Shown here: positions 1,653 to 40,290 of the stretch, piece by piece
Position numbering within the stretch: the first letter of the stretch is position 1
Layout: each line of letters begins with the position of its first letter
Assembly: GCF_041886205.1 (NCBI RefSeq)
Contig: NZ_CP169029.1
Source of the DNA: Escherichia coli
Lineage (GTDB): Bacteria; Pseudomonadota; Gammaproteobacteria; Enterobacterales; Enterobacteriaceae
Strand: one strand, 5' to 3'
DNA: 64,000 nt
Made by a program: the position numbers and the translations under genes
The notes under the pieces: generated by a model
Databases searched by the model: none
What the model was told of the DNA's origin: nothing
Seen by the model: the letters and a program-made list of their open reading frames with translations, nothing else

Positions 1653-2240
1653 TCAGTTAACTGAATCGATCCATTGCACACTGTCGGCGGAGAGCGTAAA
1701 GGGGGTAGGGGTGCAGATCGCCAGACTTAAATTTTCTAGCTGACAATGGCTGACTGACAGCGAGGAGTGATAGGTGCTATCTACGCTGACGATTTGCCAG
1801 GCGCTGCCGCCACGCTGTTTAACGATGGCTTCTTTGCGCGTCCAGATGCGCCAGAACATTTCCAGTTGCTGATCAGGATGCACGGCGTCCATTTCAGCGT
1901 GTTCCCCGAGGCTGAACACGGCGTTCGCCAGCCAGCGCCAGTTGGCGCGCGGGCGAATCACTTCGATATCGCAGCCGACTTCGCCTTCATCGCTCAACAG
2001 CAGAGCGATATCGTCACCGCTATGGCTTAAGTTGAACCATAGCGGTGTTTCCGGCGCGAATGCCGGTTTGCCTTGTTCGCCATAGATGATCTCCGGTAGC
2101 GGGGAAAGCGTGTGCGAAAGCAATGCACGCCCCGCCAGCCAGCGTTCGCGTCGTGGACCTTGCGGTGCTTGCTCGCGTAAACCCGGTGGCAGTGGAGCTG
2201 CGCTTAAGGTCGAAACTTTCCCCAGAACTATCCGATACAT
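1653..2240 (-). CDS. acpT: 4'-phosphopantetheinyl transferase AcpT
   Basis: 195 aa ORF matches remembered AcpT over full length; position next to nikA as in K-12. Confidence 0.9.
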   Translation of the reverse strand: MYRIVLGKVSTLSAAPLPPGLREQAPQGPRRERWLAGRALLSHTLSPLPEIIYGEQGKPAFAPETPLWFNLSHSGDDIALLLSDEGEVGCDIEVIRPRANWRWLANAVFSLGEHAEMDAVHPDQQLEMFWRIWTRKEAIVKQRGGSAWQIVSVDSTYHSSLSVSHCQLENLSLAICTPTPFTLSADSVQWIDSVN

Positions 2241-2294
2241 ATCAGGGCCAACGTATAATGGAAAATGAAAGTGCGTATCGTATCACTTGTCGCC

Positions 2295-3344
2295 TCATCC
2301 CGGTAACCGACTTTTCGGTCTGCCCGGCCCCAGTAAAATCGCCAGTTTGCTGCCGCCTTTCGTCGTTTCCATCCAGATTTTACACACGCTGGTTAATGGC
2401 ACCGAAAGTAGCATCCCTACCGGGCCGAGCAGCCATCCCCAAATTAACAATGAAAGAAATACCACCATGGTGGACATCCCCAGGCGATGGCCCATCATCC
2501 GTGGTTCTAAAATATTGCCGATGACCATATGGACCACTAAAAACAATGCGCCGACCAGAATACATTCGTAAATACCATTAAACAGCAGCACCTGAATCAT
2601 TGGCGGTACGGCGGAAATTACCGCGCCGATATTAGGCACGTAGTTGAGCAAAAACGCCAGTACTGCCCACATCAGCGCAAACTGCACCCCCATCAGCTCC
2701 AGCCCCAGCCAGACGATGACACCCGTCCATAAACTGAGTAGCGTCTTTAACGCCAGATAATGCGAAACGCCTTTAAGTGCGCGGTGTAATCCCGCGATGT
2801 GAATCTGTGGGTTATTCAGCGCAAAACGCATTTTGTAAGGGACGTGGCGCACTTCAAATAGCATGAAAACAACGGTCATCACCAGCAAAAGTACGCTCGC
2901 CATTGCCCCGGAAAGCCCGGTCATTAGCGCCGTGGTGAAGGTAACTACTTTTTCCGAGTCCATCCGCTGCAGCATTCGCTCCGGCGACATATGCAAATTA
3001 AGAAAAGGCAACATCTCCTGCAATTTAAAAAGTTTGCGCGTCAGCTCCTTATTAAACTTCGGCAGCATAGAGATAAATTCGTTAAACGATGCCGCCAGTA
3101 CGCCGACCAGCGCGGTTAGTGTGATCAGCATCACCACCACCACAATCGTAATGGCAACGGGGCGTTTTACTCCCCGTCGAATAAACCAGGTAACGAGCGG
3201 GTTGAGGACGATGGCAAAAAACAGCGCCAGTAACAGCTGCACAATGATATCTGCAGCTGCGTGAATGCCCGCGAGGATCACTACCAGCGAGGCCAGCTTG
3301 AGCAGAATGTGCATGCCCGTTTTATCGGGTTGAGGGGTTTCCAT
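2295..3344 (-). CDS. yhhT: AI-2E family transporter YhhT
   Basis: ORF track frame 2295..3425; chosen start METPQPDK at 3344 is preceded by a good SD (AGGAAG, complement of 3351..3356) and gives the 349 aa K-12 length. Confidence 0.85.
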   Translation of the reverse strand: METPQPDKTGMHILLKLASLVVILAGIHAAADIIVQLLLALFFAIVLNPLVTWFIRRGVKRPVAITIVVVVMLITLTALVGVLAASFNEFISMLPKFNKELTRKLFKLQEMLPFLNLHMSPERMLQRMDSEKVVTFTTALMTGLSGAMASVLLLVMTVVFMLFEVRHVPYKMRFALNNPQIHIAGLHRALKGVSHYLALKTLLSLWTGVIVWLGLELMGVQFALMWAVLAFLLNYVPNIGAVISAVPPMIQVLLFNGIYECILVGALFLVVHMVIGNILEPRMMGHRLGMSTMVVFLSLLIWGWLLGPVGMLLSVPLTSVCKIWMETTKGGSKLAILLGPGRPKSRLPG

Positions 3345-36807: not shown

Positions 36808-36820
36808 TTACTGCGACAAA

Positions 36821-36852
36821 TTACTGCGAGCTTGCTCGCAGTAATTCATTTC
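36821..36852 (+). terminator. gntU rho-independent terminator
   Basis: Stem ttactgcgag/ctcgcagtaa with loop cttg followed by a T-rich run. Confidence 0.7.
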
Positions 36853-36946
36853 TCTTATCTCCTCTCTTCATCTTTTTGATCCCTCTCGCAAATTTACCTG
36901 CTAATAATCCGTTCTAATCACTGCCTAAAGATCGCAGGAGATAAAG

Positions 36947-39043
36947 ATGGAAAAGCACGGAGCTGAATTGCTTTTACAGCGGATGTTAGGAAATACCACC
37001 GCTACTTTCAGGAAAGGGCAATGGGAAGCCATAGACGCGGTGGTGAACCAACGGCGAAAACTGCTGGTTGTCCAACGCACTGGCAGGGGGAAAAGTGCCG
37101 TGTACTTCATCGCCAGTAAAATCTTCCGCGATCGCGGTGCTGGCCCGACAATTATCATCTCTCCTTTGCTTGCCCTGATGCGTAACCAGGTTGCCGCCGC
37201 TGAACGGTTAGGTATTACGGCTGAAACGTTGAATTCTACAAACAGGGAAGAATGGCAGCGTATTAGCGATAAGTTGCTGCAAGGTGAGGTCGATTGCTTG
37301 CTGGTTTCCCCGGAACGTTTGGCAAACCAGGACTTTATCGAAACGGTTTTATATCCTATAGCCGATCGTATTGGCTTGCTTGTGGTCGACGAGGCGCACT
37401 GCATCTCTGATTGGGGCCACGATTTTCGCCCGGATTACCGACGTATATTAGATATTTTGCGCCAACTGCCTGCGAATATCCCAGTTCTGGGTACAACCGC
37501 GACAGCGAATAACCGTGTCGTTGAGGATATCCGTCAGCAATTGGGTGACATTGTGATTCAGCGTGGAACGCTGGCTCGCGAAAGTTTGGCGCTTGATGCC
37601 TTAGTCTTAGGTGAACAGTCATCCCGTCTGGCATGGTTAGCAACGGTTATCCCTCAGTTTTCCAAATCGGGAATTGTTTATACCCTGACTACTCGCGATG
37701 CCGAACTTGTCGCCGAGTGGTTAAGGACAAATGGTATCAGTGCATTTGCTTACTACAGCGGCGTGACTTGTGAAGGCGCGGAAGATTCTAATACTGCCAG
37801 GGAATATCTGGAGCAGGCGCTGCTGGCAAATAAAATCAAAGTGCTGGTCGCGACGACGGCATTAGGTATGGGGTTTGATAAACCTGATTTAGGTTTCGTC
37901 ATTCATTATCAAATGCCGGGGTCTATTGTCGGTTACTACCAACAGGTAGGGCGTGCCGGGCGTGCTATAGATTCCGCTGTTGGCATATTGCTTTGTGGTG
38001 GTGAAGACCGCGCTATTCATAAATTCTTCCGTGAAAGCGCCTTTCCTGCGGAGGCGCAAATTCATGAAATACTCAACGTACTTAGCGAGAATGACGGTCT
38101 TACCCTACGAGGCATTGAACAACGGACGAATCTCCGTTATGGGCAAATAGAAAAAGCACTGAAATTATTGGTAGCTGAAAATCCATCGCCTGTGGTGTAT
38201 ACCGAGAAATTATGGCGCAGAACTATCGTCAGTTTCTCTCCTGACCATGAACGAATTAACCATTTGATGAATCAGAGAAAAAATGAGCTGGCAGATGTTG
38301 AAAGCTATATCACGACCAAGGAGTGCAAAATGCAATTTCTGCGCCGCGCACTCGATGAGCCAAGTGCCGAACGTTGTGGTAAATGTAGCAGTTGTCTTCA
38401 GCATCCGTTGCTGTCGCCCGATATTGATAGCGGCTTACTCCATGCGGCAAATTTATTTATTAAACACGCTGACCTGCCATTAAATCTCAATAAACAGGTA
38501 GCATCTGGGGCTTTTACGCAATACGGATTTAAAGGGAACTTGCCTGCGGGTTTACAAGGATCTACGGGGCGAGTCCTTTCTCGTTGGGGAGATTCCGGGT
38601 GGGGAAAGCAGGTAGCACAGGAGAAAAAAACGGGGCGATTCAGTGATGAGCTGGTGGAGGCATGTGCGGAAATGGTTCGCCAACGCTGGAATCCGCATCC
38701 TGAACCAACCTGGGTATGCTGCGTTCCTTCATTAAGGCACCTCGACCTGGTTCCTGATTTTGCCCGGCGACTGGCGGCGAAACTTGGCTTACCTTTTATT
38801 GATGCCATTGAAAAAGTCGTGGACAATCCACCGCAGAATATGCAGCAAAACCGTTTTCACCAGTGTCAAAATCTCGACGGGGCGTTTGTGATTACCCCTC
38901 CTTTGATGCCAGGTCCGGCGTTGCTGGTTGACGATATCGTGGATTCTGCATGGACGCTGACAGTTCTGACAGCACTGTTACGCCAGGCAGGTTGCCCGAC
39001 GGTTTATCCTCTTGCCCTTGCTTCTACCTCGGTAAAAAATTGA
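36947..39043 (+). CDS. RecQ-family DEAH-box helicase with zinc-binding motif and C-terminal phosphoribosyltransferase-like (ComF-like) domain; accessory gene absent from the K-12 gntU-yhgN junction
   Basis: 698 aa ORF with strong SD (aggag, 36936..36940). Motifs: Walker A TGRGKSAVY, RecQ-type motif II VVDEAHCISDWGHDFRPDY, TATA motif, helicase-C QQVGRAGR, Cys cluster C..CGKCSSC, C-terminal PRTase-like LLVDDIVDSAWTL. Confidence 0.88.
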   Translation: MEKHGAELLLQRMLGNTTATFRKGQWEAIDAVVNQRRKLLVVQRTGRGKSAVYFIASKIFRDRGAGPTIIISPLLALMRNQVAAAERLGITAETLNSTNREEWQRISDKLLQGEVDCLLVSPERLANQDFIETVLYPIADRIGLLVVDEAHCISDWGHDFRPDYRRILDILRQLPANIPVLGTTATANNRVVEDIRQQLGDIVIQRGTLARESLALDALVLGEQSSRLAWLATVIPQFSKSGIVYTLTTRDAELVAEWLRTNGISAFAYYSGVTCEGAEDSNTAREYLEQALLANKIKVLVATTALGMGFDKPDLGFVIHYQMPGSIVGYYQQVGRAGRAIDSAVGILLCGGEDRAIHKFFRESAFPAEAQIHEILNVLSENDGLTLRGIEQRTNLRYGQIEKALKLLVAENPSPVVYTEKLWRRTIVSFSPDHERINHLMNQRKNELADVESYITTKECKMQFLRRALDEPSAERCGKCSSCLQHPLLSPDIDSGLLHAANLFIKHADLPLNLNKQVASGAFTQYGFKGNLPAGLQGSTGRVLSRWGDSGWGKQVAQEKKTGRFSDELVEACAEMVRQRWNPHPEPTWVCCVPSLRHLDLVPDFARRLAAKLGLPFIDAIEKVVDNPPQNMQQNRFHQCQNLDGAFVITPPLMPGPALLVDDIVDSAWTLTVLTALLRQAGCPTVYPLALASTSVKN

Positions 39044-40245
39044 TGAATCTTTCAGCCAATGCACAAGCGACTCTCCTGCTAACCAGCGATTTTTCTCGCG
39101 CGGCGGCGAGTGAGCATAAACCTCTTAGTAATAGTGAATGGGGGAAGTTTGCATTATGGCTGAAGCACCAACGTATCAGTCCCGCCGAGCTTCTGGTGCC
39201 GCAACCGCAAGAGAAACTTACAGGCTGGAGCGATCCGCGTATTTCTCAGGAGCGTATTCTTGGCTTGCTGGCGCGCGGTCATAGTCTGGCGTTGGCGGTA
39301 GATAAGTGGCAACGCGCCGGTTTATGGATCATAACCCGAGGAGATGCTGATTATCCCGTTCGCTTGAAAAACCGATTGCGAACGGATGCACCTCCCGTTT
39401 TATTTGGCTGCGGGAATAAAGCATTACTGCAAGCGGAAGGTATGGCGATTGTTGGCTCGCGAGATGCTCCGACTGACGATTTGCGCTATACCCAACAACT
39501 GGCCGCGAAACTGGCCCAACAGGGGATTTGCGTTATCTCTGGTGGTGCGCGAGGTATTGATGAATGTGCAATGGCGTCGGCACTGGAGGCCGGGGGAACT
39601 GCCGTTGGCGTATTAGCTGATAGCTTGTTAAAAACGAGTACGTTAGTGAAATGGCGTGAAGGGCTTATAGCAGGCAACCTGGTGTTGATTTCGCCGTTTT
39701 ACCCAGAGGTGCGTTTCACCGTCGGCAATGCGATGGCGCGAAATAAATATATTTATTGCCTTGCTGAAAGCGCAATGGTTGTACGTGCGGGAATGACCGG
39801 TGGAACGATAACCGGGGCGATAGAGGCATTAAAACATCAGTGGCTGCCTGTGCAGGTTAAACCAAATCAGGATATGCAATCAGCCAATTCACGATTAGTA
39901 GAAAATGGGGCGTCATGGAGTGCTGAACAGGCTGAGAATGTGCCGATCAGACTGTCAGACGTTCCTGGGCTGATGTATGACAGAGCACTCCGTAACGCTC
40001 AACCAGAACTGTTTTCGCTGTATGAAGATGACGCAAATTACGCAGTAATGCCCGCGCATACGCCTGTCGATTTTTATCAACTCTTTGTGGCGGAACTGGC
40101 GATCTTTGCAAAGGAATCGATAAGTATTGAAAGGCTGTCGTCTTGTACTGGTTTAACCATCGAACAAATTAGTGTGTGGCTGAACCGCGCAGAAGAAGAG
40201 GGAAGGGTTATCCGATTGGGCGAAGGTCATTATCAGTTCAGGTAA
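39043..40245 (+). CDS. DprA/Smf-like protein (Rossmann/SLOG-fold core with N-terminal extension and C-terminal winged-helix-like tail); accessory
   Basis: ORF track frame 38950..40245; start taken at MNLSANAQ (39043), whose ATG overlaps the upstream TGA stop (TGATG). Core motifs IVGSRDAP, VISGGARGIDECAMASALEAGG and LISPFYPEVRFTVGNAMARN resemble DprA. Confidence 0.85.
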   Translation: MNLSANAQATLLLTSDFSRAAASEHKPLSNSEWGKFALWLKHQRISPAELLVPQPQEKLTGWSDPRISQERILGLLARGHSLALAVDKWQRAGLWIITRGDADYPVRLKNRLRTDAPPVLFGCGNKALLQAEGMAIVGSRDAPTDDLRYTQQLAAKLAQQGICVISGGARGIDECAMASALEAGGTAVGVLADSLLKTSTLVKWREGLIAGNLVLISPFYPEVRFTVGNAMARNKYIYCLAESAMVVRAGMTGGTITGAIEALKHQWLPVQVKPNQDMQSANSRLVENGASWSAEQAENVPIRLSDVPGLMYDRALRNAQPELFSLYEDDANYAVMPAHTPVDFYQLFVAELAIFAKESISIERLSSCTGLTIEQISVWLNRAEEEGRVIRLGEGHYQFR

Positions 40246-40248
40246 TAA

Positions 40249-40284
40249 AACAGGTGCCGCGTCTGGTTGTGTGCAGCACCTGTT
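40249..40284. terminator. Hairpin between the DprA-like gene and convergent yhgN
   Basis: Perfect 9 bp inverted repeat aacaggtgc/gcacctgtt around an 18 nt loop, immediately after the stop at 40245. Confidence 0.5.
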
Positions 40285-40290
40285 TGAACC

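Follow-up and report, generated by a model that had tools for sequence, protein, structure and literature searches.

A stretch of 64,000 nucleotides of Escherichia coli DNA (contig NZ_CP169029.1, assembly GCF_041886205.1), called the window here, was analysed around the gene at 36947-39043, which encodes a RecQ-like helicase fused to a phosphoribosyltransferase (PRTase)-like domain. The locus is almost certainly rqlHI, also named psyrTA, a known two-gene toxin-antitoxin and candidate anti-phage module. An earlier note, made from the letters of this DNA alone, had described the loop of the PRTase-like domain that binds phosphoribosyl pyrophosphate (PRPP) as degenerate. Alignment and conservation analysis showed that the loop was canonical in length and pattern, highly conserved in the family and alignable with those of active PRPP synthetases. 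In the mechanism favoured here, with a probability of roughly 0.55, the PRPP-type pocket would be the toxic element of RqlH and RqlI its restraint.

Identity of the gene pair

The two genes and the ribosome-binding site of rqlH were placed as follows.

36947..39043, + strand: rqlH (psyrT) coding sequence, 698 aa plus a TGA stop; toxin, in which a ComFC-like PRTase module is joined to a RecQ-like helicase
39043..40245, + strand: rqlI (psyrA) coding sequence, 400 aa; DprA-like antitoxin, its ATG overlapping the rqlH stop (TGATG)
36936..36940, + strand: ribosome-binding site AGGAG, read from the sequence; it precedes the ATG of rqlH by 6 nt

The open reading frame (ORF) of 698 aa given by the earlier note was confirmed; the overlapping downstream gene for the DprA-like antitoxin had been passed over there. 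The rqlH product matched the PADLOC model PDLC03928 (PsyrT) with 1057 bits, residues 3-697 lying on profile positions 5-687 of 689. The rqlI product matched the PADLOC PsyrA model over its full length with 660 bits, PF02481 with 172 bits and the ShosA hidden Markov model with 93 bits. A mechanical ORF list contained a 431-aa ORF at 38950-40245, with its start inside rqlH. The PsyrA model began at residue 32 of this longer ORF; therefore, the real start of rqlI is the ATG at 39043, with which the published RqlI length of 400 aa agrees. RefSeq annotation of identical DNA gave a "RecQ family ATP-dependent DNA helicase" followed by a "DNA-processing protein DprA", between gntU and yhgN.

PsyrTA, reportedly first described in Sberro 2013, and RqlH-RqlI of extraintestinal pathogenic E. 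coli (ExPEC) are one system. The published sizes of RqlH and RqlI (698 and 400 aa) and the residue numbers K49, D148 and D663 coincided with the window copy. According to Russell and Mulvey 2015, ExPEC strain F11 carries the same protein pair, rqlH upstream of rqlI with overlapping ends, and nothing substantive differed in a comparison by sizes and residue numbers. PsyrTA was listed among phage-resistance toxin-antitoxin systems by Millman et al. 2022.

The fusion had been called unusual; it was already described in 2012 and 2015. Ordonez, Unciuleac and Shuman 2012 described the RqlH architecture, proved Mycobacterium smegmatis RqlH to be a 3'-5' helicase, and mentioned carriage of RqlH by some E. 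coli strains. The M. smegmatis protein resembles the window RqlH in its RecQ-like ATPase, spacer of about 90 aa, tetracysteine zinc module, ComF/PRTase-like C-terminal domain and lack of an HRDC domain, and differs in its length (691 aa) and in having no RqlI partner. The helicase-PRTase fusion of RqlH and its pocket are thus published, and the present finding adds nothing new in that respect. In the literature searched, no dedicated recent paper on the mechanism or structure of PsyrTA was found. A sequence search of the PDB returned no solved PsyrT structure, the matches being RecQ-family helicase cores only, and a PHROGs search of the pair returned only generic helicase and DprA-like phage families.

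PRTase-like module, PRPP loop and helicase body

The C-terminal features were as follows; the PRPP-binding signature was defined by its positions, its conservation, and its alignment to PRPP synthetases and GntX.

38414..39040, + strand: ComFC-like type I PRTase module, residues 490-698, made up of an N-terminal extension (490-585) followed, from about 586 to 698, by a PRTase core
Within this module: pocket loops, namely the pyrophosphate (PPi) loop 593-600, the flexible loop of about 624-646 (Q630, N642) and the PRPP loop 666-670
38918..38956, + strand: PRPP-binding signature ALLVDDIVDSAWT, residues 658-670

The register of the loop was D662-D663-I-V-D666-S667-A668-W669-T670. HMMER alignment showed that ALLVDDIVDSAWT aligned without gaps to ILIDDIIDTAGT of the Bacillus subtilis PRPP synthetase (1dkr; DDIIDTAGT), to LVDDMADTCGT of human PRPS2 and to LVDDMIDTGGT of another PRPP synthetase (4s2u), and hhalign placed the loop on VDDVVTTGST of E. 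coli GntX. Its length and its pattern, DD-h-h-[D/T]-[S/T]-[G/A/C]-x-T, were those of the active enzymes aligned. An Asp first, a Ser second and a Thr last in the loop are therefore normal, and Ala at the "Gly" position was also present in one active PRPP synthetase.

Conservation was determined in 116 diverse homologs of 38-54% overall identity. The residues D662 (115 homologs), D663 (116), S/T667 (116), W669 (109) and T/S670 (115) were conserved at 94-100%. The other pocket loops were similarly constrained, with Q630 in 108 and N642 in 106 homologs (flexible loop), and P594 in 110 and S595 in 109 (PPi loop). Only loop position 668 varied (R in 52, G in 44, K in 16, A in 3); in sequences closely related to the E. 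coli protein, G predominated there, followed by A. The 13-residue loop stretch of the window copy fitted PROSITE PS00103, as did the stretches of 26 of the 116 homologs; that the others did not was due to Arg or Lys at position 668.

The alignments thus give DD-h-h-D-S-[R/G/K/A]-W-T as the family signature, which is a constrained, family-specific form of the canonical loop and not a decayed one. What sets the loop apart is an invariant Trp669 and, at 668, a residue that is often basic, rather than the residues flagged in the earlier note. Neither feature is discussed in the accessible parts of the papers on the RqlH family. The variant at 668 (G/A or R/K) was compared with the presence of the DprA-like partner in a small sample of six loci, and no association was found: paired members had DSRWT, DSKWT and DSGWT, besides DSAWT of the window, and lone members DSRWT, DSGWT and RSGWT.

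The step from a degenerate loop to ligand binding in place of catalysis falls with its premise. Non-catalytic phosphoribosyltransferase-type (PRT) proteins, for example B. subtilis PurR, keep an intact loop; hence loop sequence is not a reporter of catalysis, and it cannot tell catalysis from binding.

A PRTase pattern had been assigned to the C-terminal 60 aa or so. Profile comparison and structure prediction bore out the PRTase-like fold, and gave neither an unrelated fold nor an HRDC domain; the extent was wrong, the module covering about 209 aa (490-698). PF00156 matched 52 of 59 family members, the window copy scoring 18-20 bits, below the gathering threshold of 26.3. A family profile of the C-terminal domain, searched against the PDB, matched PRPP synthetase (E 1.3e-9), PurF (E 8.5e-5) and HGPRT (E 3e-4). 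In the AlphaFold2 (AF2) model, residues 490-698 had a mean predicted local distance difference test score (pLDDT) of 95.8, and all structural matches were of the PRTase fold. The modelled order was a strand (589-592), the eight-residue PPi loop, a helix (601-613), a strand (621-623), the flexible loop, strands 647-649 and 658-665, the PRPP loop, a helix (669-680) and a strand (686-693). In the model this order fits a type I PRTase core, and the whole C-terminal 209 aa is predicted to be structurally ComFC-like, with all three loops of the PRPP site present.

A ComF/GntX-type PRTase-like domain on a helicase, as had been proposed, was supported by hhalign to E. coli GntX (96.3% probability, E 2e-9), with VP[S/L], Q...N..aF and the DD loop as common motifs. 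A six-residue gap in PsyrT lay opposite the segment 'rrhwrRGFNQ' of GntX. The curated ComF/GntX cut-offs (TIGR00201, PRK11595) were not reached, the window copy scoring 14.6 bits on GntX against 304, and the best score of a family member on comF was E 1.9e-8. No CxxC pair occurred within residues 490-698, where the Cys residues lie at 573, 591, 592, 640 and 683. Since the module has no CxxC zinc finger and scores far below these cut-offs, it resembles ComFC and is not a member of the ComF family. In contrast to ComFC (Helicobacter pylori, PDB 7P0H) and GntX, RqlH has an upstream RecQ-type zinc module in the sequence place of the CxxC...CxxC finger of ComF, and its loop reads DS[A/G/R/K]WT whereas theirs reads TTG[T/S]T. 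The RqlH module is fused to a RecQ-like helicase, while ComFC has the separate ComFA as partner. ComFC binds PRPP and interacts with DprA, which is paralleled by the binding of RqlI to RqlH's PRTase domain.

The part of RqlH upstream of the module was divided as follows.

36947..37996, + strand: core of the superfamily 2 (SF2) ATPase/helicase of RecQ type, residues 1-350, in which K49 and D148 lie; matched by Pfam DEAD and Helicase_C, by recQ_fam and by RecQ, BLM and WRN in the PDB
37997..38266, + strand: RqlH-specific linker, residues 351-440; winged-helix-like unit in the AF2 model
38267..38413, + strand: RecQ-type tetracysteine zinc-binding module, residues 441-489, with C460, C477, C480 and C483; putative metal site

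The RecQ motif set reported for this region was found again. RqlH passed TIGR00614 recQ_fam (254 bits, cut-off 219.8) and failed the RecQ equivalogs TIGR01389 (297 against 640 bits) and PRK11057 (227 against 1015). The PDB search matched E. coli RecQ (1oyw) at E 4e-54 over residues 4-348, and the cores of E. coli RecQ, BLM, RECQ1 and WRN at E 1e-54 to 1e-32. Motifs 0, I, II, III and VI were present as F21/R22/Q25, GRGKS (46-50), DEAH (148-151), TATA (184-187) and QQVGRAGR (332-339). In 80 full-length homologs, K49 was invariant, and D148 and each of the four Cys residues were conserved in at least 90%. The Cys cluster had likewise been recognized at the RecQ zinc position; its spacing, C460-x16-C477-x2-C480-x2-C483, is also that of E. 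coli RecQ, and the match to PF16124 RecQ_Zn_bind (21.3 bits) was under the cut-off of 25. Pfam search found no HRDC or RQC domain in RqlH.

E. coli RecQ has in common with RqlH a helicase core in which every SF2/RecQ motif is present, besides the aromatic-rich stretch DEAHCISDWGHDFRPDY and the four-Cys spacing. It differs in that RqlH has a winged-helix-like insert before the zinc module, and a ComFC-like module where RecQ has RQC and HRDC; the winged helix of RecQ comes after the zinc module, not before it. In the AF2 model, the spacer 351-440 was predicted to form helices 369-380, 387-393 and 398-410 followed by a beta-hairpin (416-425), and Pfam gave a weak MarR_2 match at 373-410. The full-length model had a pLDDT of 95.7 and a predicted template modelling score of 0.93, the domains being predicted to pack in a fixed way.

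Proposed toxic pocket and competing explanations

Russell and Mulvey 2015 reported that E. coli RqlH expressed without RqlI caused SOS induction, filamentation and mutagenesis. Toxicity was abolished by D663A, by DIVD>EVME and by truncation to residues 1-509, which removes the PRTase domain; the PRTase domain by itself was non-toxic. The helicase-dead mutants K49A and D148A were still genotoxic and were rescued by adding D663A, with titres restored in K49A/D663A. Co-precipitation of RqlI with RqlH required the PRTase domain. Neutralization of the toxicity by the partner, and phage defence, have been published for the F11 allele and other homologs. As K49A and D148A remained toxic and D663A rescued them, the toxic output comes from the pocket and not from unwinding.

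In the favoured mechanism, to which as a whole the probability of about 0.55 given above applies, the helicase body would bring RqlH to DNA, and the PRPP-type pocket of the C-terminal domain would be the effector. In line with direction to DNA, long family members carry N-terminal helix-hairpin-helix (HHH) DNA-binding repeats. The ligand of the pocket would be PRPP or another compound of the 5-phosphoribosyl kind, as it is for ComFC and ShosT, and the pocket would most likely consume this ligand or transfer its phosphoribosyl group, so as to damage DNA directly or through disturbance of the nucleotide pool. RqlI would sit on the PRTase domain and block the pocket until infection or stress lifts the restraint; loss of restraint would then lead to DNA damage. 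By analogy with ComFC and ShosT, whose crystal structures hold bound PRPP and whose pocket mutants lose function, binding of PRPP or another 5-phosphoribosyl ligand by the RqlH pocket is likely, and turnover is plausible. ShosTA (Pu et al. 2025; NAR 2026) resembles RqlHI in pairing a PRTase-domain toxin with a DprA-like antitoxin, in filamentation and DNA damage, and in a toxicity that needs residues of the PRPP pocket. RqlH differs from ShosT, in which an N-terminal pyrophosphatase-like hydrolase domain precedes the PRTase domain.

Several points weigh against this mechanism. Position 668 is occupied in 68 of the 116 homologs by Arg or Lys, neither of which belongs to the canonical class G/A/C; the ligand of the pocket may therefore not be PRPP. 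Phosphoribosyl transfer has not been demonstrated for RqlH, ComFC or ShosT, and ShosT was inactive on four purines. The native PsyrTA of E. coli NILS69 gave no detectable protection when challenged with the phages tested. RqlI is missing from about 55% of RqlH orthologs, as stated by Russell and Mulvey 2015; together with lone copies in housekeeping contexts, this means that the reading as a toxin-antitoxin may not apply to the whole family.

Alternatively, the PRTase-like domain could sense PRPP or nucleotides without catalysis and gate the helicase allosterically, so that metabolite levels set DNA unwinding. This explanation, to which the coupling of PRPP sensing to unwinding suggested in the earlier note belongs, is possible but doubtful. 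In its favour, no PRTase domain of the ComF or ShosT type has been shown to be catalytic; ComFC has PRPP, AMP and ADP as ligands, its authors leaving a regulatory role open; a "PRPP sensor" is one of two hypotheses of the ShosT authors; PurR and PyrR are examples of regulatory PRT proteins; and the Arg or Lys that many homologs have at 668 deviates from the consensus of the enzymes. Against these stand the false premise of a degenerate loop and two published results. In Ordonez et al. 2012, M. smegmatis RqlH-(1-505) is a monomeric 3'-5' DNA-dependent ATPase and helicase, whose full activity without the C-terminal domain shows that domain to be dispensable for unwinding; and the genotoxicity of helicase-dead E. 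coli RqlH, with its rescue by D663A, lies on the same side. Ligand sensing that gates unwinding is accordingly disfavoured, but it may be part of the regulation. That the domain is an evolutionary remnant, non-functional and with a decayed PRPP site, has next to no probability: the PF00156 score of the window copy below the gathering threshold speaks for it, but it was rejected on the near-invariant pocket residues across the 116 homologs and on the published mutants, the D663A phenotype above all, and the pLDDT of the C-terminal model also opposes it.

It is unlikely that the pair is mainly a device for DNA repair or recombination, in which a RecQ paralog with a ComFC-like single-stranded DNA (ssDNA) module hands ssDNA to a DprA-like RecA loader. 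Such a device would mirror ComFA-ComFC-DprA of transformation, and the toxicity would be an artefact of imbalance. ComFC binds ssDNA besides interacting with DprA, RecA is bound by ShosA, lone RqlH genes lie in housekeeping contexts of GC-rich genomes, and the lack of phage protection by the NILS69 system also fits. Mycobacteria with RqlH have no RecQ, according to Ordonez et al. 2012, and Russell and Mulvey 2015 listed several features that do not belong to a toxin-antitoxin. However, the E. coli copy is a presence/absence accessory island in 30% of genomes, and toxicity maps to one specific pocket residue. In addition, a psyrA deletion was not obtainable, for which its authors suggest toxicity as a possible reason, and the system has also been reported as phage-defensive. 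The lone copies may serve repair purely as housekeeping genes, a role that fits the E. coli island poorly. Quite unlikely, too, is a DNA-directed enzyme, in which the helicase would set ssDNA beside the ComFC-like domain, and this domain would move the phosphoribose of PRPP to a base or an end of the DNA, or to a nucleobase located at it. Such transfer was put forward as speculation by Russell and Mulvey 2015. It would produce a new kind of DNA lesion, prevented or resolved with the help of the DprA-like partner, and the family-specific Trp669 and the frequent Arg/Lys at 668 would have evolved to hold a nucleic-acid substrate.

Accessory island, distribution and meaning

The surroundings of the gene pair contained two further features, the island being delimited by alignment to the empty-site strain 8A (locus L002) and the hairpin by terminator scan and sequence.

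36808..40285, no strand assigned: accessory island of about 3.48 kb with rqlH-rqlI (psyrTA)
36819..36846, + strand: 12-pair hairpin with a T-rich tail behind it, directly downstream of gntU

The island started directly after the gntU stop and ended about 5 bp before the yhgN stop, standing in place of the gntU-yhgN intergenic terminator of about 47 bp seen at empty sites. Of 5426 complete E. coli genomes, 1641 (30%) had the island, always on the chromosome and at the gntU-yhgN site, never on plasmids; the remaining genomes matched the flanks only. The E. coli copies had 95-100% DNA identity. No integrase and no flanking repeat were seen at the island. The hairpin at 36819-36846, brought by the island, is likely, judged from its sequence, to be the gntU terminator in island-bearing strains. 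No sigma-70-like promoter turned up on the + strand when the 139 bp preceding rqlH (36808-36946) were scanned. In NZ_CP145698.1 and NZ_CP145694.1, the island match was split in two pieces, with an IS5-like ISKpn26 transposase annotated under the match.

In distant homologs, the order of helicase gene and DprA-like gene was kept, with overlapping ends. Lone RqlH copies in GC-rich genomes had housekeeping genes as neighbours, which agrees with the published distribution. In a metagenomic locus (L005), a separate gene of 335 aa with RQC and HRDC (2088-3095) lay directly upstream of a PsyrT homolog (P0182) and its DprA-like partner; the RecQ C-terminal domains that are absent from PsyrT are thus encoded next door there. 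A large SF1 helicase gene followed this pair. Among the long family members (P0169, P0160, P0180 and P0168; 1244-2597 aa), N-terminal HHH repeats (HHH_5, HHH_2) were found, and in one of them pentapeptide repeats ahead of the helicase-PRTase unit; both suggest added DNA-binding or DNA-mimic modules.

A degenerate loop would have pointed to a metabolite-gated helicase, and this claim does not hold. The PRPP pocket belongs to a published toxin in which it has already been mutated and found to be required for genotoxicity. The value that remains lies in the corrected reading of the loop, in a family signature whose Trp is invariant and whose "Gly" position varies, and in the 209-aa extent of the ComFC-like module. 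Although the window locus makes the question no more testable than the existing literature does, the chemistry of ComF-type and ShosT-type PRTase domains is a real question, which bears on natural transformation and phage defence.

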